From positions 40,255 to 104,254 of the forward strand of contig DASPIL010000040.1 of assembly GCA_035629175.1 (NCBI GenBank): a DNA stretch of 64,000 nt, in the 5' to 3' direction. A program made the translations under genes and the position numbers. Of the stretch, positions 38,149 to 55,436 are shown in pieces. The notes below the pieces were generated by a model, which was not told the origin of the DNA, did no database searches, and saw only the letters and a program-made list of their open reading frames with translations. Every line of letters starts with the position of its first letter. The first letter of the stretch is position 1. Source of the stretch: Verrucomicrobiia bacterium (GTDB lineage Bacteria > Verrucomicrobiota > Verrucomicrobiia > Limisphaerales > DASXHY01).

Positions 38149-41100
38149 TCAGGGCAGTTCGATCAGGAAGAACCGGCGTGGCATCTGAGGCGAGAGCGAA
38201 TTCGTAAACGAGAAGGTGCCGTTCGCCGAGAACGTGTTGGTTGCCATTCTGATCCAGTCCGCGCGCGGGGTTGCCAGGTTTGTCGAAGCCAGCACGTGAT
38301 AGGTTCCCGACGGAACGCCATTCGATCCGTTGAACACGAGGCTGCCTCCCTGCAAAAAGGTGCCGCTGATTTGCGGCAACGCGGAAGAACCAACGGCCAG
38401 CGTGCCCGATACTGCAAGGTTTGACGTCACCCAAACCAAACCTGGGCCAGGTATCGCAGGGGTGATGCTGCTGAAGGAACCCGAGTAGCTCGCAGCATCG
38501 AACAACTTGAAGCTGCTGCCCGACGCGAGCGTTCCCGGAACAATGAGATTGAGGGTTCCTCCGTACGTAATGGTTGTATTGGAACGCAGCACGTCATTTG
38601 TTCCCGATGCTTCGTCCAAATCCATTTCAACCGCTCCCGAAAGCGTGACTGAATTGCTGATCGTCAAAGCGCCGATCCCATCCAATCCTGGTGATACCAT
38701 GGAGCCTGCGTTCGCAACCACATGTCCATTGAGCACGCCGTTCCCGCGGAGAACCTGGCCGTTGGCGACCGTGAAGGTGGAATCCACACGCCCCGTCAAC
38801 GTCAATGTGGCCCCGGCCGCAAGCGTTACGACCGGACTGGTGGTCAGGGCGGCAGTCCCATTCAATCGCAGGGCGCCGCTGTTGACGCGGGTTTCACCTG
38901 TGAAAGTGTTTTCGCCGAACAGGATCATGGGTGAGTTGCCAGCCTTCGTGATGCCGCCGTCACCTGTGATGTTTCCCGAAACCGCAAGGGCAGTTCCACC
39001 GACATTGAAGAGCGCTGTTCCGTGAACTTCCACGGGTCCGTCGAGGGTAGTGTTGGCGCCCGTGCCATTATTAACCGTGTTGTTGATGCCATTGCCGTTC
39101 AGCACGAATTGCTTGTTCCAGACGACAGCGCCATTTGCGAAAGCCAGAGTCGCTCCGTCCATAACAGTCAACGTCTTGGACGAATCTCCCATCGTCGAGG
39201 TCAGGCCGGAAAACTCGAGCGTTCCCTGGAGGACCTCGATATCGCCGAGAGCTGGATCAATCGCGGTTTGGGCGAGGTTGATCTGGCTTGCGCCCGTCTT
39301 CGTGAGCTTGTAAGGGTTTCCCGCCGTACTGAGCGCCGCAGCGCCGCCGCCGTTGTTGATGGCCCAAAGGCCGCTGCCGCCAAACACGGTGTCACCCGCC
39401 AGAATGACCTGCCGCACCGCCTGCGCCTGGGCCGTGCTGTTATTGACCAGCGCGCCCTGGCCATCCGCTCCCGCGCCGGAAACGGTGATCACTTCACCAC
39501 CCAGATTGCGGCCGTTCAAATCGAGAGTGGCTCCATCATGGACCGTTGTTCCTCCAGCTGCGGTTCCAAGCGCGGTGTCGGTTTCGGTGCGCAACACGCC
39601 GCCTTCAATCTCAACAAGTCCCGTGAAATTATTCGCTCCGCCGAGCGACAGCGTGCTGGTGTTCTGTTTGAAAATGGCTGTCGCGCCGCTGATTCTTCCG
39701 GGCCCGCCGATCGTGAAGAAGTTCGCTGCCGAATCATTGGTGATCGCTACCGGTGCAACGCTGAGTCCTTCGGCGATGCTGATCACGGTGTTCACGCCTG
39801 GCGTATCGTCGAAGAGCACCGCGTCGCCCGCAAAGAATGCCGATGCCTGGTTGTTGCCCAGGTTCAACCAGTTAGCCGTGAGCACATCCCACGTGCCGCC
39901 CGCCTGCGAGTTCCACTTCAACACCGTTCCACCATCGCCGGTCACATTCAGGTACACCGATCCGGGATTGGAGTAATCCAGCGCAACGGGGATGTGCGTT
40001 CCCGTGACCACTGGATTAAACGAGCCGGAACGCGTCCCTGTGTAGGTGAACAGCAGGTAACTGGCACCATTGGCGGGCGCGCCATTGAAGTTGACACGAA
40101 TAACGTTGTTGTTGGCAGTGAGGTTGCCGACGACGTCCACGGAGTCGTTAGCCGCAGGGTCAGAGGGATTCGAGGCACTCAGGTCAAAGGTCGCGGTTGC
40201 GCCACTTTGAAGAACCAGGCCGCCATGGGCCTTGAACGATCCTCGAGCGTTGGCGTTTCCAGGAGCAAGTTCACCCGCAACCGTGGTCAATCCGTTTACA
40301 ACGCCGCTGCCGGAAAGAACCGTTCCCGTTGCAGCTGTCACGGACCCGCCACCAGCGGTGGATTGGTCGAGTTGCAGCGTCCCCCCATTCACAACTGTCG
40401 CGCCGCTGTAATCGTTTGCCCCCGAAAGCACGAGCGTGCCGCTGCCATTCTTCGTCAATGTCCCTGTCCCTGTAATGGCACTGCTCAAGGCGAGGTTTCC
40501 ACTGCGGTTGATAATCAGGGAAGAATTGTTCGTTATGCTCAGGGCACTGAGACCGCCATCGACGTCGCCGAGGCCGAGCTGCAACGTGCCGGCAAGAATC
40601 GAAACGACACCGAAATGATCAACGCCCTGGTTCGCGAGCACAAGAGTGCCGGAACCGCGCTTCATCAACGATCCGGCGGCTGCAATATTACCGGGCCCTG
40701 TGAAGGTATAAGTCGTCGAGATATTGCTGACATTGATGCTGCCCGGCGAGAGCGCTTCGGCCAGCACGACATCGGGCTGCAGCCCCAAGTCATTAAACGT
40801 GACAGCCGCTCCCGCGAAGAACGCAGACGCGCTGCCCTGATACAGCCAGTTCGGAGTTGCGGAATCCCATGTTGCATCGGCCGCACCCGTCCACCGCATG
40901 GAGAGGTCCACGACCGGACCAGAGTTCAACTGCAGCGTGACGAGACCGTTGCCAGCGTCCAGCAGTACCCCGCTGTAAGCCGGACTCGCGGCGGGAAGTG
41001 TGCCGAGAACAAAATTGCCACTGACGCCGGATTGATAGGCGATGAGCGTAAACGTGGCGGGATAAGAAGCAATCGGGGGCACGGCGAGAACATTGATCAC

Positions 41101-42495
41101 ATTCTGGCTGCCGCCCGCATTGAAGTTCTGAACTGCGACGGCGGCGCCCCCATTCGAGGCAGGAAGTTCAAGCGTCGCATCGCTCACGCTCATTGTGCGG
41201 ATCGGCGTCGTGAGCGAGCCCGCCGTGTTCGAAACAACCAGTGTGCCGCCGGGGTTCACGTTGATGACACTGTTGCCCCCGCCAGCCACAATCGCATTCG
41301 CCGCCGCCACGCCGCCATTGATGTTCAGGGTCCCGTTGACAGCACCGGTGCCGCCATTGGTACGCGCGAGCCGAAGCGTGTTGTTGACGACGAGCCGTGC
41401 GGCTTGGGGAAAAACGAAATTGTTGTCGACATTCACGACAGCCGTCACCCCTCCATTGGCGCCTGTTGCAATTCCAAAACCGATCTCCATCGTGTTTGCG
41501 TCGACAATGCCGGCGCCGAAAGTGAGCGTTCCAGAACAGGTTCCTGACGACGGCCCGGGGTTGCCGATGGCGATGTTGATCAGATCCGCAGCAATATCGA
41601 TCGTGCCTGCGGAAAAATCAGCGATGCACACGGTATTGTTGCCGCTGTTCGCGGCCCCGTTGTAGCCGAAATCGATGATACTGGAACGGCTCTCACCATC
41701 GGCGTTTCGAATTTTCAGCGAAGGTGCGGTGAAGGCGGCGTTAAAGTTCAGATTTGCATTTCCCTTCTGCCCGCCAAGGCGCATGACGTCGCCATTCAGG
41801 ATCGTCTCCTGGCCAAACGTCAGAACTGATGCCGTGCCGCCGTTCGCGTTGGAGCCTGAGTCCTGCACCATGACCTGAGGCGATCCGCCGGAAAGCGTGA
41901 TGTGATTCGTGCGGGCGAGGATCAGAGTACCGGTCGGGCGATTCACCGCAGCTCCTGCCGTCGCCTGGCCAACCAGGAGCCGGCCGATCGCAGCGTTGAA
42001 GTTGTCCAGGTTCGACAAATCCAGCGTTGCCCGATGCGCGCCAGCCGTGGAGTGACCCTGCCGGACCACGAGGTCGCCGCTGCCGGACAGCGACAAAGTT
42101 CCAGTGCCTTCAATCGTAACGGGTGTCAGCGTTCCAGAGGTGATAGCCGCACTGGTGCTTCCGACATACAACACATCTCCTGCGTTGCCGCGGTTGACAG
42201 AGAGAATTTCGCCTGCGTCGATCGTCGTGGTGTGAGTTTCCTGATTGTCCTGTCCGTAGAGCAGCGAGTTAACCGTCCGTGCTGTGTCAACGACGTTGGG
42301 TGTTCCTGTTCCTATGTTCATCAATCGAACGTCGTCCGGCGGTTCAGGTGCGAGCAGAGTATCCCAATTCGCGTTGGCGGACCAGTTGCCGCCAGCGGCG
42401 TTCCATGTTGTGGTGGCCGCATTAAGCGGAGGAATGGCCAACCACACGACAAGCAGGGCTGCAATAATTCGGAAGGACAGTTGGGAATGTTTCAT
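38149..42495 (-). CDS. Large secreted beta-helical protein with autotransporter-associated (PATR) repeats and no beta-barrel
   Basis: Signal peptide; repeats such as LTKNGSGTLVLSGANDYSGATVVNGGTL; W..W...NW / V.F.D modules; C-terminus Y.V..STNL..W...RRFF. Confidence 0.85.
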   Translation of the reverse strand: MKHSQLSFRIIAALLVVWLAIPPLNAATTTWNAAGGNWSANANWDTLLAPEPPDDVRLMNIGTGTPNVVDTARTVNSLLYGQDNQETHTTTIDAGEILSVNRGNAGDVLYVGSTSAAITSGTLTPVTIEGTGTLSLSGSGDLVVRQGHSTAGAHRATLDLSNLDNFNAAIGRLLVGQATAGAAVNRPTGTLILARTNHITLSGGSPQVMVQDSGSNANGGTASVLTFGQETILNGDVMRLGGQKGNANLNFNAAFTAPSLKIRNADGESRSSIIDFGYNGAANSGNNTVCIADFSAGTIDIAADLINIAIGNPGPSSGTCSGTLTFGAGIVDANTMEIGFGIATGANGGVTAVVNVDNNFVFPQAARLVVNNTLRLARTNGGTGAVNGTLNINGGVAAANAIVAGGGNSVINVNPGGTLVVSNTAGSLTTPIRTMSVSDATLELPASNGGAAVAVQNFNAGGSQNVINVLAVPPIASYPATFTLIAYQSGVSGNFVLGTLPAASPAYSGVLLDAGNGLVTLQLNSGPVVDLSMRWTGAADATWDSATPNWLYQGSASAFFAGAAVTFNDLGLQPDVVLAEALSPGSINVSNISTTYTFTGPGNIAAAGSLMKRGSGTLVLANQGVDHFGVVSILAGTLQLGLGDVDGGLSALSITNNSSLIINRSGNLALSSAITGTGTLTKNGSGTLVLSGANDYSGATVVNGGTLQLDQSTAGGGSVTAATGTVLSGSGVVNGLTTVAGELAPGNANARGSFKAHGGLVLQSGATATFDLSASNPSDPAANDSVDVVGNLTANNNVIRVNFNGAPANGASYLLFTYTGTRSGSFNPVVTGTHIPVALDYSNPGSVYLNVTGDGGTVLKWNSQAGGTWDVLTANWLNLGNNQASAFFAGDAVLFDDTPGVNTVISIAEGLSVAPVAITNDSAANFFTIGGPGRISGATAIFKQNTSTLSLGGANNFTGLVEIEGGVLRTETDTALGTAAGGTTVHDGATLDLNGRNLGGEVITVSGAGADGQGALVNNSTAQAQAVRQVILAGDTVFGGSGLWAINNGGGAAALSTAGNPYKLTKTGASQINLAQTAIDPALGDIEVLQGTLEFSGLTSTMGDSSKTLTVMDGATLAFANGAVVWNKQFVLNGNGINNTVNNGTGANTTLDGPVEVHGTALFNVGGTALAVSGNITGDGGITKAGNSPMILFGENTFTGETRVNSGALRLNGTAALTTSPVVTLAAGATLTLTGRVDSTFTVANGQVLRGNGVLNGHVVANAGSMVSPGLDGIGALTISNSVTLSGAVEMDLDEASGTNDVLRSNTTITYGGTLNLIVPGTLASGSSFKLFDAASYSGSFSSITPAIPGPGLVWVTSNLAVSGTLAVGSSALPQISGTFLQGGSLVFNGSNGVPSGTYHVLASTNLATPRADWIRMATNTFSANGTFSFTNSLSPQMPRRFFLIELP

Positions 42496-42556
42496 ATGTT
42501 GTTCAACCGGGCTGTTGAAGGAGTGTCGCAAGTCTAGTAAAGCTGATTGGCCGACT

Positions 42557-42576
42557 CATCCCTCTTTCGAGGGGTG
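42557..42576 (-). promoter_or_regulatory. Regulon motif copy A (serves the PATR gene)
   Basis: CATCCCTCTTTCGAGGGGTG; TAGACT 20 nt downstream on the minus strand. Confidence 0.7.
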
Positions 42577-42585
42577 CGTTGCGAG

Positions 42586-42605
42586 CATCCCCCATAGGAG
42601 GGATG
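42586..42605 (+). promoter_or_regulatory. Regulon motif copy B (serves the beta-helix enzyme gene)
   Basis: CATCCCCCATAGGAGGGATG; TTTCAT 20 nt downstream. Confidence 0.7.
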
Positions 42606-42634
42606 CCTGTCGAAGCGGGAAGTGATTTCATGTC

Positions 42635-45541
42635 GTGATGCAGAATGAATCCCAGCAACAGCAACGTCCCGACCATCCCAGTCCGATGAGACGAAGCCGC
42701 CAGCTTGCCTGCCGATTCATTTTCATCTTCTGCCTTCTAGTCCACGCGAGCTCAAGCCATGCGTGGCGCAGTGTGTTGTATCCGGCGGATTGGAGCGCTC
42801 CAGATAATGTCCTGCGCTTCGAGACCAACAAGATGATCCAGGATTTCTCCTATGCCGGATTTCGAGCGGGAACTGAACCGTTGCCGGAAATTGGCGGGCC
42901 GATTTTTGACGTCACGGCCGCGCCGTTTCTGGCGGATAAGACCGGAAAAACGAATGTCACCGCCGCGATCCAAACAGCCATTGATGCGGCACAGGCATCC
43001 GGCGGGGGAGTTGTGTGGCTTCCGGCTGGTGTGTATGCAGTCAGCCCGCAGGGCCCGAACACTTACGCGCTGCGCATCAACTCATCCAACATCGTTCTCC
43101 GAGGCGCCGGCACGACGGAAACATTTGTTCTCAACACCGCCACGAACATGCGGGGAAAAAGCATCCTGCTGATCAACGGCCCCTCGGGCGCCGGATTCTA
43201 TGCGACAGGAAATCCGCCCGTGCCCCTCTCACGCGATCTCCTCGGCCCAACCACGATGATTCCAATGGCCAGCACGGCGGGATTCGCGGCAGGACAATGG
43301 ATCACCTTGCGCGCGGATGCGACGGACGATTGGGTGACGGAACACAGTGAAACATCCTGGCTTGGCTATGCGAATAGCCTGCGCGGGATCGCTTACTTTC
43401 GACAGATCATCGCAGTGGACCACAAGAATTCCACACTGACGCTGAACGTGCCGACTCGTTACTATCTGAAGACCCGCGACAACGCGAGAGTGACGCGCCT
43501 TAATTCGGGTCCGATCACAGGGACCGGCCTGGAGAACTTCTCCATCGGTAATGTTCAGCATGCGGGCATCGGGTGGAACGAAAGTGATTACACAATTCCC
43601 GGGACTGCGGGGCACGACGTTCACGACTCGTTTGCGATTCGTTTGGTGCGCGCGCGGGATTCGTGGATTCGAAATGTCTCAACATTCCAGCCCCCCGGCA
43701 ACACAGCCACATGCCACCTGCTTAGCAATGGGATCCTCATCAACGATTGCACACAGGTTACGCTCACGAACTGTCATTTGCAGCGATCGCAATACGGCGG
43801 AGGCGGCGGAAACGGCTACATGTTCCGACTCAGCAATTCGAGCGAGATTCTGCTCCAGGATTGTCGCGCCACGTTCACACGGCACGGATTTGTCCTGTCG
43901 CAAATGGCTGCAACTGGAAACGTATTCAACCGATGCATCGACAAGGATACCGGGCATCAGACCGGCCTCACAGGGTCACAGGCCACGTCGGGCCGCAACA
44001 GCGATCACCACATGCATTTCAGTCATGCCAACCTGATCGATGCCTGCACAGGTGATTCGAGCGTCTGGGAGGCGCGCTATCGCCCCTACGGCAGCGCTCC
44101 ACTGCATAATCTCACGGCAGCACACAGCGTGTTCTGGAACACACGCGGCATCGGAAGTGGCGCAGCCCACGTCGTGCAGTCGGAACAGAGCCGTTACGGC
44201 TATGTGATTGGCACCCAAGGCTCACGCACCGGGGTCTCGCTCGGCACGTTCGGCGGCAGCAAATGTTTTCCAGTGGATCACGTGGAAGGCGCTGGAACAG
44301 GCGAAACTCTCGAGCCTTATTCCTTATATCAGGATCAGGTCGCCCGCCGATTGACCGGGCCCCGCGCGTCCCTTGGCGAACCGCGAATCCTCGGCTTTCC
44401 AACCAACAGCCTGATTCTGCCGCTAACGGTTTCGATGGGGGGAACCAACGTGAACGCTGCGGATTTGGATGTCCATTGGCGTGTGGTGGCCGCGGACGGA
44501 ACTGTTTTATTCTCGAATGTGAATTCCCCCGCGCCGCAAGTTACGTTTTCCGCCCGAGGAACGAATGATCTCGAGGCCACTGTAAGCGCAAACGGATTCA
44601 GCAGTTCCGCGCGAATCCGTGTGATCCTGCTTCCGGCCGAAACCGAACGGTCGGCGTCGTATTCTCCGGAAGCCGACGCTTACGTGCGCGACGGCGCCTT
44701 TGCCGATGACAACTTCGGCTCAGAACCAACACTCCACCTCAAACAGCATTCCACACCGGGATTCAACCGGTGCAGCTTCCTGAACTTTCGAATTCCGCGT
44801 ACGGAATATGACCGCGCTGTCCTGGAACTCGCGGCGCGGACAGCGCCGCCAACTGAAGGACTCAGACTTGCGCTGCATTCAGTGACCAATACATGGCTGG
44901 AGGATTCAATCACGTGGAACAACCAGCCTGTCATAGGCGATGTCCTCGCTGATTGGGCAGCTGCCGAGAACAGCCTGGAACGGATCGATGTGTCGGCATC
45001 TGCGCAGCCTGATCCCGAGGGCTTCCTGGCATTTCGCTTCGGACTTCTGATTTCCTCCGCGCCATCCGACACGGTTTATTCCTTTGCGTCAAGAGAGTCG
45101 GCTGACCTCCCAGGTCCCCGGCTCGAATTGATTTGGACCAATGCGGCATTCTCCTATCTCGATTGGACGAACCACCTGGAAGGCGCAGGCACTCCAGCAG
45201 AGAATCCCGATGCAGATGCGTGGACGAACGCGGCTGAGTATCTGTTTGGCCTCAATCCATTTGTACCTGATCCGCCTTCTGTTTTGGGCCTGGAGGCTAC
45301 AGCGATGGGTCTCGTATTAACGTATCCACAACGGAGGCGCTGGCCGCCCGGGAGCTTTTACGTGATCGAAACAGCTTCCTCACTGCACGCTCCATGGTTG
45401 CCGGCCGAAGGTGTGCAATTCAACCTTCTCGAAGCTCTCGACGATACCGTCCGAGTTGCCGCGATCATACCTCGCGCGGACGAATCGCAGCGTTTCTATC
45501 GCTTCAGCGTAATTCTTCGATTCAACAACAACCAGCTGTGA
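42635..45541 (+). CDS. Secreted beta-helix glycan-active enzyme (pectate-lyase-3-like) with DNRLRE/CBM96-like module; start may be 42638 or 42686
   Basis: DFSYAG, AIQTAIDAA..GGGVVWLPAGVY; ADAYVRDG..NFG..ITWNNQP..ASRE; EYLFGLNP...RFYR tail. Confidence 0.75.
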   Translation: MMQNESQQQQRPDHPSPMRRSRQLACRFIFIFCLLVHASSSHAWRSVLYPADWSAPDNVLRFETNKMIQDFSYAGFRAGTEPLPEIGGPIFDVTAAPFLADKTGKTNVTAAIQTAIDAAQASGGGVVWLPAGVYAVSPQGPNTYALRINSSNIVLRGAGTTETFVLNTATNMRGKSILLINGPSGAGFYATGNPPVPLSRDLLGPTTMIPMASTAGFAAGQWITLRADATDDWVTEHSETSWLGYANSLRGIAYFRQIIAVDHKNSTLTLNVPTRYYLKTRDNARVTRLNSGPITGTGLENFSIGNVQHAGIGWNESDYTIPGTAGHDVHDSFAIRLVRARDSWIRNVSTFQPPGNTATCHLLSNGILINDCTQVTLTNCHLQRSQYGGGGGNGYMFRLSNSSEILLQDCRATFTRHGFVLSQMAATGNVFNRCIDKDTGHQTGLTGSQATSGRNSDHHMHFSHANLIDACTGDSSVWEARYRPYGSAPLHNLTAAHSVFWNTRGIGSGAAHVVQSEQSRYGYVIGTQGSRTGVSLGTFGGSKCFPVDHVEGAGTGETLEPYSLYQDQVARRLTGPRASLGEPRILGFPTNSLILPLTVSMGGTNVNAADLDVHWRVVAADGTVLFSNVNSPAPQVTFSARGTNDLEATVSANGFSSSARIRVILLPAETERSASYSPEADAYVRDGAFADDNFGSEPTLHLKQHSTPGFNRCSFLNFRIPRTEYDRAVLELAARTAPPTEGLRLALHSVTNTWLEDSITWNNQPVIGDVLADWAAAENSLERIDVSASAQPDPEGFLAFRFGLLISSAPSDTVYSFASRESADLPGPRLELIWTNAAFSYLDWTNHLEGAGTPAENPDADAWTNAAEYLFGLNPFVPDPPSVLGLEATAMGLVLTYPQRRRWPPGSFYVIETASSLHAPWLPAEGVQFNLLEALDDTVRVAAIIPRADESQRFYRFSVILRFNNNQL

Positions 45542-45571
45542 ACTCGATCGCTTCGACTGATCGTTGTTAGC

Positions 45572-45591
45572 TCTCCCCCGAAAGAGGGATG
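45572..45591 (+). promoter_or_regulatory. Regulon motif copy C (serves the prepilin-kinase-regulator unit)
   Basis: TCTCCCCCGAAAGAGGGATG; TAAGGT (with TGn) 19 nt downstream. Confidence 0.7.
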
Positions 45592-45631
45592 CCGCCGTTT
45601 CGGCGTTTGCTAAGGTCGTGACATCACTCTT

Positions 45632-46438
45632 ATGAGAATCGCGACCCCGCCGATTATCGTCATCCGATCCAAGTTCCGACACGCCTTGTGGCGGGCGTTC
45701 ACCCTGATTGAACTCCTCGTCGTGATTGCAATCATCGCAATCCTCGCGGCAATGCTGTTGCCGGCGCTGGCGACAGCCAAGGAAAAGGCGAAGCGCACCA
45801 ACTGCATCAGCAACCTGAAGCAGATCGGGCTGGGAATTCAGATGTACGCTGACGAGCATCGCAACCAATTGCCGCGAAGGTTATCCAGCGATCCGGGAAC
45901 AGGTTCAGCTGTGTGGGACCTCACGCATAACATGGCCGATCAGTTGGCGGCTTCCGGGGCGCAGCGGAAAATTGTTTATTGTCCCGGCGGCTTCACGACG
46001 GTTCGCGATGCGGACTTCTGGTGGAACTATTCCAACGGTTCCCGCGTGACGAGTTACCAATGGCTGATCAGCCGCGACGGAACGCAAACTTATGGGACGT
46101 CGTTTGGCCCTCCCCCGTCGAATCCAGCGCTTGGCGCGCGCAAGGGGTTCCTGACGCGGCTTGGAAACGTCTACACCAATTTCTATACGGTTGCCGAAAC
46201 CGAATTGGTGACGGATGTCGTCGTATCGGAAGGCGCGGGCACGCGAAAGGACAAGTTCGTGAGCGTCTTGACAGTCAATCCCACGGAACTGCCACGCGGC
46301 TACAACAGCAGCCACATGGCTGGACGAATGCCCGCGGGAGGCAACATCCTGTTCATGGACCAACACGTCGAATGGCGGCAATTCCGCGACATGAATTCCT
46401 GGTGCCGGTGGACCCAGAACCGGTGGAGTTGGTTCTGA
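45632..46438 (+). CDS. Prepilin-type N-terminal cleavage/methylation protein with H-X9-DG-type C-terminal motif (DUF1559-like)
   Basis: [36 protein letters not shown]...[11 protein letters not shown]. Confidence 0.92.
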
Positions 46439-46496
46439 ATGCGGCTTTGAAGCTTGGCAAGAGCGGTTTGTTGCAACACTGTGACCTCCTCAGTCC

Positions 46497-48749
46497 ATGA
46501 TCCCAGGTGCAACAACTTCCGCGCGAACGAAGCAGCCCCTTTTCCGTTCCGTCATTTCTGTACTCGCGCTCGCCTGGTTTTTCCTCGCCTCTTCATCCAC
46601 AGCCCCTGCCGAAACCCTCACCAACGCCGCCCAGGTTCTGTCGCTCGACGCTGCCGCGGCGGCGCAGAAAATTCCAGTTCGGATCACGGGAGTCGTAACC
46701 GCCGCGGAGCCAACCTGGAATGGCAAATTCTTCGTGCAGGATGAAACCAGCGGCGTGTTTGTCGGCAATCGCATCGTTCCCGCGCCGCAGCCGGGTGACG
46801 TGGTGGAAGTCACCGGCGTGACCCATCCTGGCTCCTATGCGCCCATTGTAACGAGCCCGAAATGGAAGCCTCGCGGCAATGCGCCGCTGCCTGAGGCCCG
46901 CCGCGTTCCCATCGAACGCGTCATGGCTGGCGCTGAAGATGGTCAGCGCGTTGAAATCGAGGGGATCGTCCGATCTGTCATTCCTGGAAAAACCCACCTC
47001 GATGTTTATCTGGCGTCTGGGGGCTACCGTTTGCATGTCTATCCCAAGGCGTCGGCAGCACTCAATTCACAGCCCTTGATTGGCGCGAGAGTCCGGGTGC
47101 GCGGAACCGCCGCAGCCTCTTTCAATGCAACCCTGCGCCACATGCTTTCGGTCGTGCTCTTTATTCCGCAGGAGTCCGATTTCATCGTGGAGGAAGTCGA
47201 AGCTGTTGACCCGTTCGACGAAGATATCCTCCCGCTGAAGAGCGTCGCTCAGTATCGCCGAAACGTTGCTCCCGGCCAAAGGATGCACGTGAAGGGGGTC
47301 GTCACCTTCCAGCGGCCGGGCGAGGATCTCTTCATTGAGGATGGCACCGCGGGATTGCACGTCCGCAGCCGCCAACCGCAGAATTTTGAAATCGGGGATG
47401 TGGTTGAAATCGCGGGCTTCGCCGATTTTGATCACTTCCTGCCTGTCCTGGAGGATGCGGTTTTCCGGCTGACCGGCGATCCGCATGCGCCCGCCGAGCC
47501 GAAGTCGGTGACAATGGCGGAGATCCAGGCCGGCCTGCATCATGCCGATCTCATTCGGCTGACGGCAAAACTGCTGGATCGGAGCACACGCCATGGCAGG
47601 CCGCGCGGAAATGGACGGCATTGGTCGCGCACCGTCCTCATGCTGCAGCACGAGGATCAGGTGTTCACAGCCGAAGCGGAATCGCCAGACAGCGAAAATC
47701 CCCTGATGGGAATTCCACTGGGAAGCGCCGTCGAGGTCACGGGGATTTGCTTCACGGAAAATGGGGAAGACAAGAAGCTGCAATCGCTGCAACTGTTGCT
47801 TCCCAGTCCCGAGAGCTTCCGGATTGTTGAGAAGCCGAACTGGTTGACGCCTCAGCGAATGCTGATTGGGGTGAGTCTGCTCCTCGTTGTCTTGATCGGA
47901 GCCGTCGGATGGTCATTGATGGTATCGAAGCGCAACGCCGTGCTGAGGCAATTGGTTCGCGACAGGGAGTCGGCGCAGGACGCACTCCAGCAGGCTCACG
48001 ACCTGTTGGAGGAGCGCGTAAAGGAACGCACCGCCCAATTGAAGTTCCAGATCACCGCGCGCAAGGAATCCGAACTGCAATATAAAGCCGTGCTGTCGGA
48101 GCGCACGCGGCTCGCGCAGGAATTGCATGACACCTTGGAACAATCCCTGACCGGAATCGCCCTGCAGCTCGATACCACAGCCAAATTGTTTGAACAAAAA
48201 CCGCAGGTGGCAAACCGCCACCTCGAGCTCGCGAGGGATCTCCTCTCCCAAAGCCAGGTGGACATCCGCCGTTCAGTCTGGGATCTGAGATCGCGTGCGC
48301 TGGAAGAATTTGATCTTTCCGGCGCGCTGATTACGAGCGCGCGGCAATTGACTGATGGAACATCGATCCATTTTGAAGTGTGCGCCAAGGGACGCGTTCG
48401 GCCGCTCCCGGAAACGATCGAGGACAACCTGCTTCGAATTGCTCAGGAAGCCATGACCAACATCATCAAGCACGCCCAGGCGTCCAACGCCGAGATCGAA
48501 CTCGATTACGGTCCGCGCACCGTGGGAATGCGGATTCGCGATAACGGGCGCGGTTTCCTGCAAGAAGAATGCGCGGGGCCGGCTGAAGGACATTTTGGAC
48601 TTCTCGGCATTCGCGAACGCGTGAAGCGGCTCGGAGGGGAATTGAACATCGAAAGCGCACCCGGCGCTGGCACGCTGCTGTCCGTCCAAGTTGCCGTCAG
48701 CCCCGATGTGACAGTGGAGGACGCTCTCATCGCCCCGCTCGCCTCATGA
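46497..48749 (+). CDS. Sensor histidine kinase (HisKA_3) with tandem OB-fold-like periplasmic repeats
   Basis: Repeated V.GVVT...F.QD...G..V...GDVVE..G units; TM helix; ERTRLAQELHDTLEQ, EAMTNIIKHA, DNGRGF. Confidence 0.92.
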   Translation: MIPGATTSARTKQPLFRSVISVLALAWFFLASSSTAPAETLTNAAQVLSLDAAAAAQKIPVRITGVVTAAEPTWNGKFFVQDETSGVFVGNRIVPAPQPGDVVEVTGVTHPGSYAPIVTSPKWKPRGNAPLPEARRVPIERVMAGAEDGQRVEIEGIVRSVIPGKTHLDVYLASGGYRLHVYPKASAALNSQPLIGARVRVRGTAAASFNATLRHMLSVVLFIPQESDFIVEEVEAVDPFDEDILPLKSVAQYRRNVAPGQRMHVKGVVTFQRPGEDLFIEDGTAGLHVRSRQPQNFEIGDVVEIAGFADFDHFLPVLEDAVFRLTGDPHAPAEPKSVTMAEIQAGLHHADLIRLTAKLLDRSTRHGRPRGNGRHWSRTVLMLQHEDQVFTAEAESPDSENPLMGIPLGSAVEVTGICFTENGEDKKLQSLQLLLPSPESFRIVEKPNWLTPQRMLIGVSLLLVVLIGAVGWSLMVSKRNAVLRQLVRDRESAQDALQQAHDLLEERVKERTAQLKFQITARKESELQYKAVLSERTRLAQELHDTLEQSLTGIALQLDTTAKLFEQKPQVANRHLELARDLLSQSQVDIRRSVWDLRSRALEEFDLSGALITSARQLTDGTSIHFEVCAKGRVRPLPETIEDNLLRIAQEAMTNIIKHAQASNAEIELDYGPRTVGMRIRDNGRGFLQEECAGPAEGHFGLLGIRERVKRLGGELNIESAPGAGTLLSVQVAVSPDVTVEDALIAPLAS

Positions 48750-49378
48750 ACGATAAGCCCGGAATCAAGGTGCTGGTCGCTGACGACCACTTTGTTGTTC
48801 GCATGGGGCTGATCGCTCTTGTGAATACGGAACCGGATATGCAGGTGGTGGGCGAGGCTGCCGACGGAAAGCAGGCAATCGAAATGTTCAACCGGCTGCG
48901 GCCAGATCTCGTCCTGATGGACCTGCGGATGCCCGTGAAGGACGGCATTGCAGCCACACGTGAAATCCGCGAGAAGTTTCCTGACGCGCGTGTTCTAATG
49001 CTCACCACATTTGACGGAGACACCGACATTCATCGCGCGATCGAGGCTGGTGCGCGCGGTTACGTGTTGAAGAACACAACGGGCGACAAGCTGATTCCGG
49101 CGTTGCGGGCTGTGGCATCCGGGCAGAAATGGATTCCACGCGAGATTGCCACGCGCCTGGCTTCACGGAACCTCTTCGAGGAACTTACCCCGAGGGAAGT
49201 GCAGGTCCTCCAGCAAATGGCGAAAGGCCTGGCCAACAAGGAAATCGGCGAGGTGCTGCGGATCAGCGAACATACGGTCAAAGATCACCTGAAGAATATC
49301 CTCGGAAAAATGCGCGTTGCAGATCGCACCGAAGCGGTCACGGCCGCGTTGCAACGCGGGATCATCCAGCTTGGATAA
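48746..49378 (+). CDS. NarL/LuxR family response regulator
   Basis: ADDH, MDLRMP, LTPRE, NKEIG..L.ISE.TVK.H. Confidence 0.96.
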   Translation: MNDKPGIKVLVADDHFVVRMGLIALVNTEPDMQVVGEAADGKQAIEMFNRLRPDLVLMDLRMPVKDGIAATREIREKFPDARVLMLTTFDGDTDIHRAIEAGARGYVLKNTTGDKLIPALRAVASGQKWIPREIATRLASRNLFEELTPREVQVLQQMAKGLANKEIGEVLRISEHTVKDHLKNILGKMRVADRTEAVTAALQRGIIQLG

Positions 49379-49398
49379 CGTCCCATTTCGGCGTCACT

Positions 49399-51069
49399 TC
49401 ACCGCACATCAATCCAATCGAAATCGAGCAGTCCCCGCTTCACTTCCAACTTCAGAGATTGCAAGCCACTATCAAACGGTGCCTTGCCCAGGTTGAGCTC
49501 TGTCCAATCCTTCGACTCAAATCGAAGCGGGTACGAGCGGCCATCCCGGACAAGCGTTGCTACCCCCGCTCCGAAAGGAGCGCGGGCTCGCACGATCAAG
49601 TCGAAGGTTCCTTTGTTCCGGTTGTGAATCGAATACGAAGTCCATTCCGTTTCTGACAAAGTGACGTAAACATCGGAACTCCTTTGTTCGGGTTTGGCCG
49701 CAGTGACTTTCACCGATTGATCGGGTCGATAGTGGGCAGATTTTGTCGAGCGATCGCGGACATGGTAAGACACGCCGGCGCCGCCGAATCCGAAGTTCTC
49801 AGCTTCAATTCGCGCGGGGGTCTGGCGCAGGATGGAGTTCACCACGCCCGGAAAGAAATCACAGTTTTCAATTCGCAGGTTCAAGATCAGTTCGTCCAGT
49901 GCCGCTTGGGCAACTTCACGGGAAGGACGTTTCCCGCCCTGAGAATATGCGACAAGCTCCGACCAATGCTGCGGCCGGCGAATCGAGAACGGCGCATTGG
50001 CTGAATCCACTTTTTTCCACGGCCAGAACGACCAGCCAATGTTGTTGGCTTCAAAATACGCCGTGGTCGCCCAATAAATCCCGCCATCGCGTTCGCCCGT
50101 TTCCCCCACCCAGACGGGCGCGTTCAGACGTTCGCGATGTCGCACATACCGATCAATGTTCTTCACAACCGCGGGCGTGTCCCAACAGTAATAATGACAT
50201 TGATACACGAGGTTATCATCGAAGGGCTTCGTGAAGATCGACCAGTCATTGGCCCAATCAACGCCTTCGAGAATGATCATGTGCCGCGAATCAACCTCGC
50301 GAATGGCGCGCGTGATCCGCTGATACAACGGCTCGACCAGGTGTTTGTATTTGGCAGCCGCGCCCGTGCGTTCGGGTAAGGGTTCGTTCAGCAGGTCATA
50401 ACCGGCGACAGCAGGTTCATTTTTGTATCGGTTCGCAATGGAAACCCACAGATCCACCAGGCGATCCTGATAGTGAGTATCCATGAACAGCCTCGGCTGA
50501 TCATCCAGGCTGTCGTCGATATTCTGTCCCGTCTGGCCACCCGGGGCACCATGCATGTCGATGATCACATACAATTGGTGTTTCCGGCACCATGCAACCA
50601 AGTCGTCGAGCAATCGATAACCCTCTTCCACGCGAACTGGCGGGCCGGTTTCAGTGAGGAACAATCGGGCATTCAAGGCGGGCCGGACGGAATTAAATCC
50701 GAGATCGGCAATTCGTCGGATGTCGGCTTCCGTGATGTAGTTGCGGCGAAAAGCCTCCCAGAAATGCTGGGACGGCTCGTCGCCGATCATGTCAGCAACC
50801 ATTTTCTCGATGCGTCGCGGCCGATCGCCGTCCCTGCCAAATTTCCACATATATCCTTCAGGCAGCATCCAGTTCCCGAGACCCACGCCCCGAAGCAGAA
50901 TCGTCTCGCCCCGTTCGTTGATGATGTCGTGCCCGTGCGTCCGCAGAAATGTGAGTTGCGCCGCAATTCCGTCCCCCAGGGACGCCTGAATCAGCAGCAC
51001 GACCGCTAAAAAGAGCGGAGCACTTGTGGACGGCAGTTTATGGCGCCGAAAGGAAATTATAAGTTTCAC
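49399..51069 (-). CDS. GH5 family glycoside hydrolase with C-terminal CBM6/35-like module; start uncertain (GTG 51069 preferred)
   Basis: GLGNWMLPEGYM, GFNSVR, DMHGAPGGQ, YDLLNEP, WVGETG, WSFWPWKK; IEAENF. Confidence 0.88.
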   Translation of the reverse strand: MKLIISFRRHKLPSTSAPLFLAVVLLIQASLGDGIAAQLTFLRTHGHDIINERGETILLRGVGLGNWMLPEGYMWKFGRDGDRPRRIEKMVADMIGDEPSQHFWEAFRRNYITEADIRRIADLGFNSVRPALNARLFLTETGPPVRVEEGYRLLDDLVAWCRKHQLYVIIDMHGAPGGQTGQNIDDSLDDQPRLFMDTHYQDRLVDLWVSIANRYKNEPAVAGYDLLNEPLPERTGAAAKYKHLVEPLYQRITRAIREVDSRHMIILEGVDWANDWSIFTKPFDDNLVYQCHYYCWDTPAVVKNIDRYVRHRERLNAPVWVGETGERDGGIYWATTAYFEANNIGWSFWPWKKVDSANAPFSIRRPQHWSELVAYSQGGKRPSREVAQAALDELILNLRIENCDFFPGVVNSILRQTPARIEAENFGFGGAGVSYHVRDRSTKSAHYRPDQSVKVTAAKPEQRSSDVYVTLSETEWTSYSIHNRNKGTFDLIVRARAPFGAGVATLVRDGRSYPLRFESKDWTELNLGKAPFDSGLQSLKLEVKRGLLDFDWIDVR

Positions 51070-51101
51070 TAGGAAAGCATGCGCCCGCGCCAAAGGTTCT
51101 G

Positions 51102-51121
51102 CATCCCTCGTTCGAGGGGAT
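51102..51121 (-). promoter_or_regulatory. Regulon motif copy D (serves the GH5 gene)
   Basis: CATCCCTCGTTCGAGGGGAT, 17/20 identical to copy A; CATGCT 20 nt downstream on the minus strand. Confidence 0.7.
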
Positions 51122-51125
51122 CTTT

Positions 51126-51812
51126 TCACGTTGCCCCATCGGCTTCGATCCATCGGACTGCGTAACGGACGAGGTCGGTCGCAGTCTTCAACTGCAGCTT
51201 CTCCTTGATATTGGCGCGGTGCACTTCAACGGTCTTCACACTGAGATGCAAGTGATCTGCAATTTCGCGCGTTCCTTTTCCTTCGCCAATCATCTGGAAC
51301 ACTTCAAACTCGCGATCAGAAAGCCGCCCCACCCCCGAACCGCCGCCTCCATCCCGACGCCCGGAAAAGATCTCGAGGATTTTTGCCGACATCTTTTCGC
51401 TGACGTAAATCTTGCCCTCCAGCACCTGACGGATGGCTTCCATGAGTTTTTTCCCCCCTTCCTGCTTCATCACGTAGCCCCGTCCGCCGGCACGAAGGAC
51501 GCGCTCCGCATAAAGGGCTTCATCATGCATGGACACCACCAGGATCAGGATCGCAGGATGCATCGCGCGAAGGTCCTTGATGAGCTCGAGCCCGTTTTTG
51601 TCGGGAAGAGAAATGTCGGCAATGAGCAGATCGGGGGTCTGCATTCCCACCTGGCTAAGCGCCTGGGCCGCGTTGTCAGCCTCGGCGGCCACAATGAGGT
51701 CGGGTTCGTTATTGATCAACTGCGCGAGCCCCTGGCGCATCATGGGATGATCATCCACGATGACGATTCGCTTCCTAACCTTTTGCGTTTTCCTGGGAGC
51801 CACTCTGCTCAT
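51126..51812 (-). CDS. NarL/LuxR family response regulator
   Basis: VDDHP, DISLP, SMHDE, LSDREFEV, SVKTVEVHR. Confidence 0.95.
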   Translation of the reverse strand: MSRVAPRKTQKVRKRIVIVDDHPMMRQGLAQLINNEPDLIVAAEADNAAQALSQVGMQTPDLLIADISLPDKNGLELIKDLRAMHPAILILVVSMHDEALYAERVLRAGGRGYVMKQEGGKKLMEAIRQVLEGKIYVSEKMSAKILEIFSGRRDGGGGSGVGRLSDREFEVFQMIGEGKGTREIADHLHLSVKTVEVHRANIKEKLQLKTATDLVRYAVRWIEADGAT

Positions 51813-53223
51813 GTTGCGTTGAGGCGCTGGCGAGAGCAATCGTGCATGTCACGCGCACTCCGCCCTCGGATCTGTTTTCCACGGTCAAATTCCCACCAAT
51901 CATAGAGGCCCGGGACTGCATGATGCGAAGACCCATGCCGTTTCCCGCGGGCGCCGCTGGCAACCCGCGTCCATTATCGGTGACCATCATCAAAAGTTTT
52001 CCGGGATGCGACTCCAGCAGGATGCACAAACGCGACGCCTTCCCGTGCCGAATCGCGTTCGATACGGCCTCCTGCGCGATGCGGAAAATGTGCGTAGCCA
52101 TCGCGTGGTCATTAACAAGAACAGGAACGCCGCACTCGAAACGGCATTCCACCCCAAAAATCTTTTCAGTGTTCGACGCCAGTTCCTGCAGGCCGGACAT
52201 CAGGCCTTCCGACTCAAGCACGATCGGCGACAATCCTCTCGCCATAAGCCGCGCATGACTGATGGCGTCCCGCACGTAGCCCGCGATTTCGCCCAATCGG
52301 GTGGCGATGCTTTTTGACCTGGCAGCGGCTTTCTGTTCCAGCACCTCGCACATCAACTCGACTCCTGCAAGCTGCTGGCACAAGCCATCATGGAGATCCT
52401 GCCCGATGCGCCGCTGCACACGGTCATTGATCTCCAGGATTTCCTTTTCGAGGCGTTTGCGTTCTGTGATGTCACGAAGGATGACAAGCCAGTGCGTGAT
52501 CCGGCCCGATCGATCTCTGACAGGACTGATGCGCCGCTCAACCCAGCGCTCGCCTTGAGCACTGTCGTATGCCGAGATTTCCTCATCGAAACTGCGGTCG
52601 GGGGGGATCCCATGGATCAGGCGCTGGTGAACTGCGCTTAATCCTTTCAAACGGTTGAGCGGGCGTCCGACCACCTCGTCCGGGCTGTAGCCGGTCAATT
52701 TGGCGAAGGCGGGGTTGACGAACAGCACCTGCAGGTCTGGAAGTTCGGCGCTGGCGATGAGGACGGCGCTGAACCCTTGAATGACTACGCTTTGAACGAG
52801 GTTCACCCGTTCCTCGGCCGCTGCAAGCCGCCGTTCGGTCTCGAGTTGCTCGACCACATTCCCCACGACCTCGGGAACAAAATCGAGGAACCGGACATCC
52901 TTCACGAGGTAGTCTCGCGCGCCCCGTTTCATCATTTCCACCGCCACGCGCTCATCCCCCTGCCCCGTGATGATGACAAACGGCAAGGAACGCTCCAGGG
53001 TTTCGAGGCGTTGGATCAATTCCTTGCCCTCCATGTCCTGAAGCTTGAGGTCGAGCACGAGCAGATCCGCCCGCTGGCTGGACAGCCAGGCCAGAGCCTC
53101 TTCGCCCGAGGCAGCGGTGGCGGTCTGAAATCCTCCGCGCTCCAGCGCTTTTTGGATCAGGCGCAACAGACCCCGATCATCATCCACGATGAGAATCAAA
53201 TGCTGGCGCGTCGCGTCTTGCAT
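51775..53223 (-). CDS. Hybrid REC-PAS-HisKA_3 histidine kinase
   Basis: ILIVDDD...DLKL...DYLVK; VNPAF PAS; RIGQDLHDGLCQ, EAVSNAIRH, DNGRG. Confidence 0.92.
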   Translation of the reverse strand: MQDATRQHLILIVDDDRGLLRLIQKALERGGFQTATAASGEEALAWLSSQRADLLVLDLKLQDMEGKELIQRLETLERSLPFVIITGQGDERVAVEMMKRGARDYLVKDVRFLDFVPEVVGNVVEQLETERRLAAAEERVNLVQSVVIQGFSAVLIASAELPDLQVLFVNPAFAKLTGYSPDEVVGRPLNRLKGLSAVHQRLIHGIPPDRSFDEEISAYDSAQGERWVERRISPVRDRSGRITHWLVILRDITERKRLEKEILEINDRVQRRIGQDLHDGLCQQLAGVELMCEVLEQKAAARSKSIATRLGEIAGYVRDAISHARLMARGLSPIVLESEGLMSGLQELASNTEKIFGVECRFECGVPVLVNDHAMATHIFRIAQEAVSNAIRHGKASRLCILLESHPGKLLMMVTDNGRGLPAAPAGNGMGLRIMQSRASMIGGNLTVENRSEGGVRVTCTIALASASTQHEQSGSQENAKG

Positions 53224-53236
53224 AACCGGTAAACGG

Positions 53237-53689
53237 TTATTTGCCGCTGCCCACTTCCGGCACCTGCACGAGCGAGATGTAAAGACCAAGACTTTTGATC
53301 GCCTCGGCAAATTTGTCGTAGTCCACGGGTTTGACGATATAGCTGCTGCAGCCGATGTCATGGCAGCGTTCCACCTCCCGCGGGTCGTCCGTGGTGGTCA
53401 GCATGATAACCGGAATGCGGCGCAATTCCGGATCGCCTTTAACCTGGCGCAGCACCTCAACGCCATCCACCTGAGGCATGCGAATATCGAGGAGAATCAA
53501 GTACGGCGCCTCGGGAAGGCGGTGGGGGCCAGCGCCGCGGTGAAAAAGAAAATCGAGCAATGCCTGGCCGTTGTCGAACCGTTGAAAACTGTTGTGCAAT
53601 CCTGCCCGGGCCAGGTTTTTTTCAATCAATCGGGCGTGGCCCGCGTCATCCTCAGCAATCAAGATCATCATTTCCCGAGCAAGCGTCAT
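53237..53689 (-). CDS. Single-domain response regulator (Rcp1-like)
   Basis: IAEDD, LLDIRMP, IPVIMLTT, YIVKPV. Confidence 0.93.
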   Translation of the reverse strand: MTLAREMMILIAEDDAGHARLIEKNLARAGLHNSFQRFDNGQALLDFLFHRGAGPHRLPEAPYLILLDIRMPQVDGVEVLRQVKGDPELRRIPVIMLTTTDDPREVERCHDIGCSSYIVKPVDYDKFAEAIKSLGLYISLVQVPEVGSGK

Positions 53690-53705
53690 AGGTGGATGGC
53701 TCTCG

Positions 53706-55367
53706 TTACTGTGCCTGCGCTGCTCTCGGCAGGGAAACAAAAAATGTGGAACCCTTTCCTGCAGCTGACTCAATCCAAATGCGGCCGCCGTGGCGCTCCA
53801 TGATCCGCTGGGTGATCGTCAATCCCAGTCCGTCGCCTTCACTGTGGTTTGGATTCAGGCGATGAAAGATTTCAAACACCTTCGCCTGATGTTCCTGGGC
53901 GATGCCGATGCCATTATCGCTGACACTGTATACCGTTGCGTCCGCGTTTGCGGTGCCGCTCACCACAATCCTGCAGGGACGGTCGGGGCTTCGGTACTTG
54001 ATGGCGTTCTCCAGCAGATTCGCAAACACCTGGCTGATCAGGGTCGCGTCTCCCTCGGACGGCGGGAGGGGCTCCACGTTCAGGTTTACCGCATCACGTT
54101 TTACTTGGAATTCCATCGCATTGATAATTCCTGTGAGCAGCTCATTCATGTCGATCGCTTCGACCTTCAGGGCAACCCTTCCGAGGCGGGAGTAACGGAG
54201 GAATCCCGAAAGCAGGCTGTCGATCTTCGTTACGCCGGCCTGGATATATTCGAGCGCCTCGGGAATGTCATCACGCAGCAAGCGCTGCGCTTCCGCACGG
54301 TCGGCGTCTGAGGGGGCCTCGGTCGAGAGGCGCATCCGCAGGCCTTCACACGCATGCGACAATTCGCGGCTGAAGCCCTGAATGTTCACCAACGGCGATC
54401 GAAGATCGTGCGACGCGATATACACGATGGTTTCCAATTCACGGTTCTTCTCCGCCAATGTCTGGGCGAGTGATGCGAGGCGGGCTTCGGCGCGCTTTCG
54501 ATCCGTGATGTTCCGCGCGACCTTCGACGCCCCGATGATCTTGCCGTCGGGGGAGCGGATCGGAGAAATCGTGACTGAAACATTGATGAGAACACCATCT
54601 TTGCGGCGGCGTATAGTTTCAAATCTCTCAATGGGCAGACCTTGCCTGATCGTCGTCAGGATGGCCTGTTCCTCACCGAGCCGATCCTCGGGAATGATCA
54701 TGGAGATCGGCTGTCCGAGAGCTTCCTCGCGGGCGTATCCAAACAGCGCCTCTGCACCGCGGTTCCAACTGTTGATAATCCCATCCAGGCTCTTGCCGAC
54801 AATCGCATCTTCAGTCGATTCCACGATCGCGGCGTAGTAAGAGAGTCGCTTCTCTGCTTCCTTCCGTTCGGTAATGTCGCGTACGAAACCCGTGAATAAA
54901 CGCCGTTTCGCAAGCCGCACTTCGCTCACGGAAAGTTCCATCGGAAACTGGCTGCCGTCCTTCCGCAGCCCAACCACTTCACGACCAATGCCAATGATCC
55001 TGGCATGACCTGTCTGGATATAGCGTTCCAGGTAGCCATCGTGCGCTTCGCGATAGGGTGACGGCATCAACATGCTGACATTGCGGCCCATGACTTCGGG
55101 CGCGTCATATCCGAAAAGTTTCTCTGCGGCACGGTTCATCGATTCGACGGTACCGCGCTCGTCTATGGTGATGATTCCCTCAACGGCTGTGTCGAGGATT
55201 GCGCGCAGTCGTTCCTCACTGTCGAAAAGTTCGGTGCCCGCGAGCCGTTGCCGGACGTCGCTCGGCGGGATGGCGCTCTCCCGGCTTTCCAGCGACTTCA
55301 AACGTTCAATCAGTTCGATCCGGGAAAGCTTCGAATAATCCGATGGCGGCATTGGCGGGTGCGTCAT
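53706..55367 (-). CDS. Cytoplasmic PAS-PAS histidine kinase with a FixL-type heme PAS domain
   Basis: LMPSPYREAHDGYL..Y...IIGIGREV.G.RKDG..FP; SHDLRSPL; NLLENAIKY; GLGL. Confidence 0.9.
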   Translation of the reverse strand: MTHPPMPPSDYSKLSRIELIERLKSLESRESAIPPSDVRQRLAGTELFDSEERLRAILDTAVEGIITIDERGTVESMNRAAEKLFGYDAPEVMGRNVSMLMPSPYREAHDGYLERYIQTGHARIIGIGREVVGLRKDGSQFPMELSVSEVRLAKRRLFTGFVRDITERKEAEKRLSYYAAIVESTEDAIVGKSLDGIINSWNRGAEALFGYAREEALGQPISMIIPEDRLGEEQAILTTIRQGLPIERFETIRRRKDGVLINVSVTISPIRSPDGKIIGASKVARNITDRKRAEARLASLAQTLAEKNRELETIVYIASHDLRSPLVNIQGFSRELSHACEGLRMRLSTEAPSDADRAEAQRLLRDDIPEALEYIQAGVTKIDSLLSGFLRYSRLGRVALKVEAIDMNELLTGIINAMEFQVKRDAVNLNVEPLPPSEGDATLISQVFANLLENAIKYRSPDRPCRIVVSGTANADATVYSVSDNGIGIAQEHQAKVFEIFHRLNPNHSEGDGLGLTITQRIMERHGGRIWIESAAGKGSTFFVSLPRAAQAQ

Positions 55368-55396
55368 ATGGGCGTGGTGACGATAAGCATCCAGTG

Positions 55397-55436
55397 GAAA
55401 AAAGAAAGAGCCACGAACGCTTCCGCTCGTGGCTTT
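55397..55436 (-). terminator. Intrinsic terminator after the 62-aa ORF
   Basis: AGCCACGA/TCGTGGCT stem followed by CTTTCTTTTTT on the minus strand. Confidence 0.7.

Follow-up and report, generated by a model that had tools for sequence, protein, structure and literature searches.

Verrucomicrobiota are major degraders of polysaccharides that work without SusC/D, and pilins of the DUF1559/H-X9-DG type, whose function is unknown, form one of their largest gene families. In Planctopirus, 68 DUF1559 paralogues, likewise of unknown function, are counted in the available text of PMC10632474. Attachment or uptake of glycans by pilus-type proteins has been proposed for the Planctomycetes-Verrucomicrobia-Chlamydiae (PVC) bacteria, according to the accessible parts of the works on Akkermansia MUL2 and the planctomycete "fishing rod" (PMC13174399, PMC12078418, bioRxiv 10.64898/2025.12.30.696933). 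As far as the available texts go, predicted beta-glucan polysaccharide-utilization loci (PULs) contain GH5_46-CBM6 with glycoside hydrolases (GHs) of families GH30 or GH3 (PMC6794258), and kinases and regulators are reported near GHs (PMC10880615). Here, we analyzed a locus of six genes in a 64,000-nucleotide stretch (the window) of the genome of a Verrucomicrobiia bacterium (assembly GCA_035629175.1, contig DASPIL010000040.1), in which a DUF1559 prepilin is encoded together with a sensor kinase, a NarL-type regulator, a GH5 enzyme and two further exported proteins. The DNA also occurs in soil metagenomes, two runs of which may be its source. Genomes are designated below by G-numbers (G000 is the source genome) and extracted loci by L-numbers. 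The genes come from a dicodon open reading frame (ORF) caller, which gave 4009 genes in G000, and gene starts and short genes are therefore approximate.

The locus and its putative palindromic operator

The six genes form four units (Table 1): the PATR gene on the reverse strand, the beta-helix gene on the forward strand, the pilin, kinase and regulator genes together on the forward strand, and the GH5 gene on the reverse strand. The six ORFs of the first-pass annotation were found where it had placed them, and Pfam and profile scans largely bore out their family assignments. Its claim of four transcription units with one common upstream motif also held, as an exact copy lies at each unit start, and, in agreement with its description, no TonB-dependent or ABC transporter was found among the six genes or the scanned neighbors.

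The motif, a putative operator, is a 20-bp palindrome with the consensus CATCCCTC-N4-GAGGGATG. Its first pattern had four exact matches genome-wide, each at a unit start; with up to one mismatch, five matches were obtained in the window against 0.03 expected, the fifth being one palindrome read in reverse. In a scan of G000 with a weight matrix built from 20 sites of other genomes, the copies of the locus took ranks 1–4 and the next match reached 17.9 bits, a ranking that is not fully independent because the training sites were themselves chosen with the consensus from G000. No further members of the regulon were found in G000, where the remaining matrix matches (≤17.9 bits) stand before unrelated genes. 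A blind search for palindrome families in 33 NarL loci recovered a family of four only at this locus and one of three at one other; among random loci, at least three members were found at 1 of 150. A second locus with an OB-type kinase and a NarL gene (G000:C44:13866-19144) has its own three-copy 20-bp palindrome of a different sequence. Among metagenome kinase loci outside the training set, some of them redundant, 14 of 25 have a site scoring more than 18 bits; of the 11 others, 10 are contigs shorter than 4.2 kb. No operator was found at 21 loci that have an orthologue of the beta-helix or pilin gene without the regulator or GH5, save for one intragenic match of 15.8 bits.

A −10-like YAnnnT hexamer lies 19–21 nt past the operator in 25 of 32 site-gene pairs, compared with a mean of 7.7% (maximum 28%) at other offsets, and this spacing places the operator center near −42.5. 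Class II activator sites of LuxR-type and NarL-family regulators are 20-bp palindromes centered near the same position. The NarL regulator of the locus probably binds the palindrome; the five orthologues compared retain its recognition helix. In relatives, one operator copy serves divergent genes. Ownership of the motif by the adjacent NarL gene (51126-51839) was considered and is disfavored, as this gene differs in its recognition helix and did not turn up in the orthologous loci. A terminator or a dispersed repeat was likewise rejected, since the motif is confined to unit starts, its loop letters vary and the hexamer spacing is fixed; a simple terminator scan gave 16 matches (14.2 expected by chance), one of which is an operator copy read on the opposite strand. 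A loose order-wide version of the palindrome was too unspecific, matching 232 of 301 genomes; it occurs 20–70 times in G323, G309 and G053, possibly as a repeat or a large regulon.

The GH5 gene likely starts with the GTG at 51069, 6 nt past a −10-like hexamer (the ORF is open to 51153), and this short distance suggests a leaderless mRNA. The same arrangement is seen in four genomes, namely at 51069 of the window and in the GH5 orthologues of L012, L014 and L022.

A lack of co-regulation had been named beforehand in the first-pass annotation as an observation that would speak against its proposal. Within the limits of sequence evidence, the conserved operator at every unit start supports co-regulation, and we hold with high confidence that the locus is real and co-regulated. 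Metatranscriptome matches to the locus comprise nine short contigs from one soil dataset and have no bearing on co-induction.

Operators at unit starts beside kinase/regulator or GH5 orthologues occur in G291 (five copies), G055, G320, G113, G002, G006, G011, L022 and L024–L027. The whole locus is repeated in G055, G291 and the metagenome locus L199, which is of the G055 type. G291 has five operators, a GH2-lyase fusion in addition, and two different pilins that are both served by an operator copy; G055 carries the beta-helix gene, the orthologous pilin (64%), the kinase, the regulator and GH5, inverted together with its operator; in G320 the operator is present and the contig is cut. Since the pilins of operator-bearing loci fall in at least three clades of the pilin tree (88 pilin heads, FastTree, midpoint root), and the beta-helix gene is found elsewhere without the operator, the stable core consists of the kinase, the regulator, the operator and a beta-glycosidase. 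This core usually includes some pilin, the beta-glycosidase is GH5 or GH3, and the beta-helix and PATR genes are accessory. The genes under or beside the operator in relatives encode GH5, GH3, GH30, the GH2-lyase fusion, GH88/105 and a CBM6 protein, which suggests a beta-glucose-containing glycan, perhaps with uronates.

Several observations on the relatives may be added. The fusion of GH2 with an alginate-lyase fold lies at L012:5151-8870, L014:4708-8328 and L026:15610-19332, and stands under the operator in G291, G055 and G320. In G113 (L054:1-13493), at least two kinase/regulator pairs of this clade stand in tandem, and every pair is accompanied by an operator copy and by a different pilin. 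The records of L022 and L023, which hold close orthologues, are titled archaeon and Bifidobacterium; these titles look wrong, and the gene content resembles that of G000.

Table 1. Coordinates of the genes, operator copies and related features (window positions unless a contig or locus is given).
Feature	Position	Strand	Description
Window	G000:C40:40255-104254		genome 5.41 Mb, 96% complete
PATR protein	38149..42495	-	exported, 1448 aa, beta-strand repeats, signal peptide, C-terminal domain (CTD) of ~75 aa at C-terminus
CTD of PATR protein	38152-38400	-	unnamed, ~75 aa
Operator copy 1	42557..42576	-	serves PATR gene; -10-like hexamer 20 nt on; 28.7 bits, rank 1
Operator copy 2	42586..42605	+	serves beta-helix gene; without YAnnnT hexamer at 19-21 nt; 26.1 bits, rank 2
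Beta-helix protein	42635..45541	+	exported, right-handed beta-helix, CBM96/DNRLRE module, weak CTD (E 8e-5)
Operator copy 3	45572..45591	+	serves pilin-kinase-regulator; -10-like hexamer 19 nt on; 20.3 bits, rank 3
Prepilin	45632..46438	+	N-methyl helix and DUF1559
Sensor kinase	46497..48749	+	signal peptide, ~410-aa ectodomain, one transmembrane helix, HisKA_3 and HATPase
NarL/LuxR response regulator	48746..49378	+	overlaps kinase by 4 bp
GH5	49399..51069	-	exported, both catalytic Glu kept, CBM6-like C-terminal module, no CTD
Operator copy 4	51102..51121	-	serves GH5; -10-like hexamer 20 nt on; 20.1 bits, rank 4
Cobalamin riboswitch operon	L140:3462-5736 (G000:C84:13461-15735)		only cobalamin switch in G000

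The encoded proteins

The prepilin matches PF07963 (27.4 bits, cut-off 21.2) and PF07596 (33.1 bits, cut-off 23.3). Cleavage is predicted before the Phe at 45698, with Ala at −1 and Glu at +5. In the structural model (pLDDT 82), helix 3–53 packs on a C-terminal beta-sheet in a type IV pilin fold with a large insertion, and the 20 best structural matches of this model are all type IV pilins or pseudopilins, with modest Z scores of 3.0–5.9. The best of them is 6xxd (Z 5.9, rmsd 3.6, 116 aligned residues), and headless ComP, PilV and PilE reach Z 4.4–4.8; Foldseek returned nothing significant (E ≥ 0.11). The H-X9-DG label that the pilin had been given was not confirmed: its motif is H-X14-DQH, which keeps H, G, D and H with a spacing of 14 and has Q in place of the G of DG. 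There was no match to TIGR04294, but this model equally missed a paralogue with the exact H-X9-DG motif.

The kinase of the locus has 12 paralogues in G000, and 5 of the 12 have a pilin within three genes. It had been described as an OB-repeat kinase; the kinase assignment stands, while the OB fold draws on weak, sub-threshold Pfam matches of the ectodomain, namely tRNA_anti-codon (6 of 13 members; E 1.5e-4), DUF5666 (9 of 13), DUF5689, RMI2, MCM_OB and BOF. Look-alikes of the ectodomain (Atlas feature matches 0.77–0.81) are kinases and GGDEF proteins of Verrucomicrobiota and Acidobacteriota, and a sequence search of the PDB with the ectodomain gave no match. The ectodomain may be built of OB-fold repeats.

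In the PATR protein, Pfam gives PATR repeats only and the C-terminus is the CTD; no autotransporter beta-barrel was found, and the protein thus differs from type Va autotransporters, which have such a barrel at the C-terminus. Its N-terminal half matched no named family. The beta-helix protein is likely a polysaccharide depolymerase of an unnamed family, judging by a model of its catalytic part (pLDDT 58) that resembles phage tailspike depolymerases and a capsule lyase (E 2e-11, 8–15% identity). Its family comprises 453 clusters at E ≤ 1e-30 and has no curated name, the few source names seen being generic; the curated beta-helix families of polysaccharide lyases (PLs) and GHs gave short N-terminal matches only, far below the cut-off. 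Among the 401 genomes of the order, the beta-helix domain is present in 10. The C-terminal module of the GH5 protein is CBM6-like (E 3.6e-12 to 2y8k), and the GH5-linker-CBM6 architecture is that of CbGH5 as given in the available text of PMC5812240, with a spacing of the catalytic Glu residues of 105 here vs. 97.

Two other features of the window lie close to the locus. A GH78 alpha-L-rhamnosidase is encoded at 31389-34601, 3.5 kb away and without an operator copy, and a separate signaling cluster of a cytoplasmic PAS-kinase, a receiver, a NarL and a PocR-AraC protein (51126-56745) abuts the GH5 gene.

Pilins elsewhere in the genome and the order

G000 encodes 73 prepilins, of which 58 were classed by regular expression as being of the type found in the locus. 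The genes within two positions of these pilins number 211; 159 were scanned with Pfam at E ≤ 1e-12, one was dropped, and 35 genes shorter than 220 aa and 16 already known genes (regulators, two genes of the locus) were counted as negative. As controls, 20 random ten-gene blocks were used (131 of 200 genes scanned), with the GH/PL counts being a hand tally of strict families. GH/PL genes make up 23 of 210 pilin neighbors and 4 of 200 controls (p = 1.6e-4), or 23/159 vs. 4/131 for scanned genes only (p = 5.5e-4); these p-values overstate the significance, because neighboring genes are not independent. LamG (11 vs. 0), PATR (7 vs. 0) and sugar-type regulators (14 vs. 0) were also found near pilins in comparison with controls, and a NarL regulator lies within two genes of 12 of the 58 pilins vs. 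2.6% of other genes.

The CTD, for which Pfam and NCBIfam have no model, was detected with a locally built profile at the terminus (~75 aa) of 148 proteins of G000, and is a candidate sorting signal on exported proteins. A CTD protein adjoins 21 of the 58 pilins, compared with 6.4% of other genes (p = 5e-11), and lies within two genes of 30. Only one of the 15 other prepilins adjoins a CTD protein, and it is itself of this pilin type. For the machinery, G000 has four secretins over the cut-off, 11 T2SSE-family ATPases, six PilC/GspF genes and one GspG/GspK cluster. No SusD (PF07980) was found in this 96% complete genome; ten TonB-dependent receptors are present, none of them within two genes of a pilin and the nearest three genes away.

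One paralogous pilin stands behind the cobalamin (B12) riboswitch (Table 1), in an operon that encodes a 329-aa CTD protein and then the pilin, with an exact H-X9-DG motif. In a sample of 121 genomes, 113 have a cobalamin switch and 78 have the pilin of this operon, and 65 of its 79 matches lie 1.2–4.6 kb downstream of the switch on the same strand. By our reading, the 30 best-scoring switches lead ribonucleotide reductase genes (11), a TonB-type receptor (3) or exported PEP-CTERM/CTD proteins (16); in 10 of the latter 16, a match to the riboswitch-pilin operon is found within 1.5 kb, and the three receptor-led genomes gave no match to the pilin. Among the B12 operons fetched, the CTD protein is ahead of the pilin in 19 of 20, and one has a PEP-CTERM protein instead. 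Because a vitamin needs capture, not hydrolysis, this operon favors a capture module over enzyme export; the ligand binder may be the pilin or its CTD partner. Across the order, the CTD of this conserved pair nearly always ends in Pro, mostly in Arg-Pro. One TPP-like riboswitch match was below the cut-off and had no tie to a pilin. The Rfam scan of the window gave no match, and that of 20 pilin loci gave one tRNA only.

The head of the locus pilin was matched in 24 of 401 genomes of the order. Among the 19 orthologue contexts examined, five (G055, G113, G002, G006, G011) combine the operator with GH5 or the kinase/regulator pair; the other 14 include pectate-lyase loci, an operon of alginate lyase, GH88 and sulfatase, and loci without carbohydrate-active enzymes (CAZymes).

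The role of the pilin and comparison with known systems

We propose that the locus is a self-contained glycan-utilization regulon, in which the pilin joins a shared type IV pilus/type II machine as a capture module replacing a TonB receptor; our confidence in this proposal is evenly divided. The kinase would sense a glycan fragment. Bound to the palindrome around −42.5, the NarL regulator would switch on the four units, its own operon among them. The CTD would serve for the export of the PATR protein and the beta-helix enzyme, and GH5 would trim beta-glucosides. The pilin would be a minor subunit of a type IV pilus/type II secretion machine encoded elsewhere, binding the glycan directly or via an exported partner and so standing in for a TonB-dependent receptor. 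The substrate is the least certain part of the proposal and may be a beta-glucose-containing glycan, possibly a uronate-containing microbial exopolysaccharide.

The first-pass annotation had proposed that the pilin is a substrate-specific adaptor for capture/uptake or secretion in place of SusC/D. Capture gains support from the B12-riboswitch pilin; specificity is loosely supported, with pilins from at least three clades and 5 of 19 orthologues in this type of locus. The association of pilins with CAZymes, whose absence had also been named beforehand as telling against the annotation, was found genome-wide when counted by gene. A number of observations weigh against the capture proposal. Counted per block, the GH/PL enrichment (18/49 vs. 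3/20 larger control blocks) is not significant (p = 0.064), and many pilins have no CAZyme neighbor at all. Close orthologues of the pilin (57–63% identity) stand in unrelated loci of G045 and G009; G291, L022, L200, L208 and L212 use other pilin clades, so that the regulon is not tied to one; and in some cases among L024–L027 no pilin lies beside the kinase unit. The beta-helix gene occurs in six of nine other genomes with other regulators or neighbors and without the operator. Further points are the second NarL gene adjoining the locus, the first choice of the operator training sites with the G000 consensus, the Ala instead of Gly at −1 of the prepilin cleavage site, and the unexplained passage of a polymer through the secretin.

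The exchange of pilins among loci, the orthologues in unrelated contexts and the weak per-locus statistics would suit a pilin that is exchanged freely, as an adhesin or passenger, among variable islands encoding exported proteins, so that its membership of the regulon says nothing about a specific substrate. We regard this as very improbable: an operator copy is dedicated to the pilin at this locus and in L199, both pilins of G291 have one as well, and the B12 pilin keeps its riboswitch in most cases. A pilin outside filaments, acting as an inner-membrane, periplasm-facing binding protein that passes its ligand on, either to the kinase or to a transporter of the inner membrane, seems to us unlikely. 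Such a role agrees with the position of the pilin directly before or facing the kinase in G000, G055, G113, L195–L197 and L199, with the pilins near 5 of the 12 paralogous kinases, with the large head insertion, and with the annotation of DUF1559 proteins as solute-binding proteins in the available text of PMC4807772. However, the N-methylation helix is intact with Glu at +5 and the fold is that of a pilin, and sister pilins are found beside cytoplasmic LacI/AraC regulators or behind a riboswitch, settings that offer no kinase partner.

The CTD bears on another explanation, under which the pilin acts as an adaptor for secretion or docking, specific for its cargo, and reads the CTD of co-expressed proteins for type II export or display, the glycan being degraded outside and ordinary transporters being used. 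Two proteins of the locus carry a terminal CTD, a large CTD/PATR protein precedes pilins of one clade at five loci belonging to the regulon family, and both the adjacency of CTD proteins to pilins in G000 and their place before the pilin in nearly all B12 operons are in line with such an adaptor. Yet pilins lie within two genes of no more than 35 of the 148 CTD proteins, 21 of the 58 pilins have no CTD protein within five, one B12 operon carries a PEP-CTERM protein instead, and the most constant companion of this pilin is GH5, which lacks the CTD (G055, G002, G006, G011). Overall, we consider the adaptor role rather doubtful. If the pilin does dock CTD proteins, about 150 proteins of G000 would bear a new sorting signal in the form of the CTD; if it captures the substrate, periplasmic glycan uptake without TonB receptors would be explained.

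A broader form of the capture proposal is tentative. In it, the order would use TonB-independent nutrient capture, with dozens of locus-dedicated minor pilins, each under its own sensor or riboswitch, set in a shared retractile pilus and pulling a glycan or vitamin through the secretin to the periplasm together with CTD-docked partners; this locus would be a complete, operator-defined example. The locus offers a closed test unit of a predicted operator and regulator, two enzymes and one pilin, and the operator allows the regulon to be traced in relatives.

The first-pass annotation had called the locus an undescribed system. The general idea of pilus-mediated glycan uptake in PVC bacteria was already in print, and the cassette is a repeated design of the genome, not a unique one; what is new is the operator with its regulon, together with the clade of OB-like kinases and the statistical association of pilin and CTD. 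In the literature covered, with subscription papers and supplements outside the scope, no description of the cassette, the CTD or the kinase family was found. The available portions of PMC10632474 and PMC4807772 do not tie DUF1559 to glycan loci, and those of PMC11685898, PMC11131199, PMC10880615 and PMC3663571 contain no such pilins in CAZyme loci.

With the PULs of Bacteroidota the locus shares clustered exported glycanases under one dedicated membrane sensor-regulator, but it has no SusC/SusD tandem pair, contains a prepilin, and its exported proteins end in an unnamed CTD; the sensor also differs, being a classical kinase with an OB-like ectodomain and a separate NarL regulator. GH5 and CBM6 with GH3/GH30 recall the beta-glucan PUL variants in the available text of PMC6794258. 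The predicted operator resembles the LuxR lux box and NarL class II sites in being a 20-bp inverted repeat 19–21 nt before a −10-like hexamer with no −35 consensus, and differs in its sequence and in a signal that would come from a membrane kinase. As in the DUF1559 (PF07596)/H-X9-DG (TIGR04294) prepilins of PVC bacteria, an N-methyl helix is joined to DUF1559 in a large set of paralogues (58), whereas the spacing is H-X14-DQH and the pilin is tied to a defined operator, regulator and enzymes. With Akkermansia MUL2 and the "fishing rod" the locus has in common the idea of pilus-type proteins for glycan attachment or uptake. It is set apart from MUL2 by the description of that locus, where a single conserved assembly locus has PilM-like and archaeal-pilin-like genes, whereas here there are many locus-dedicated pilins, each with a different regulator.

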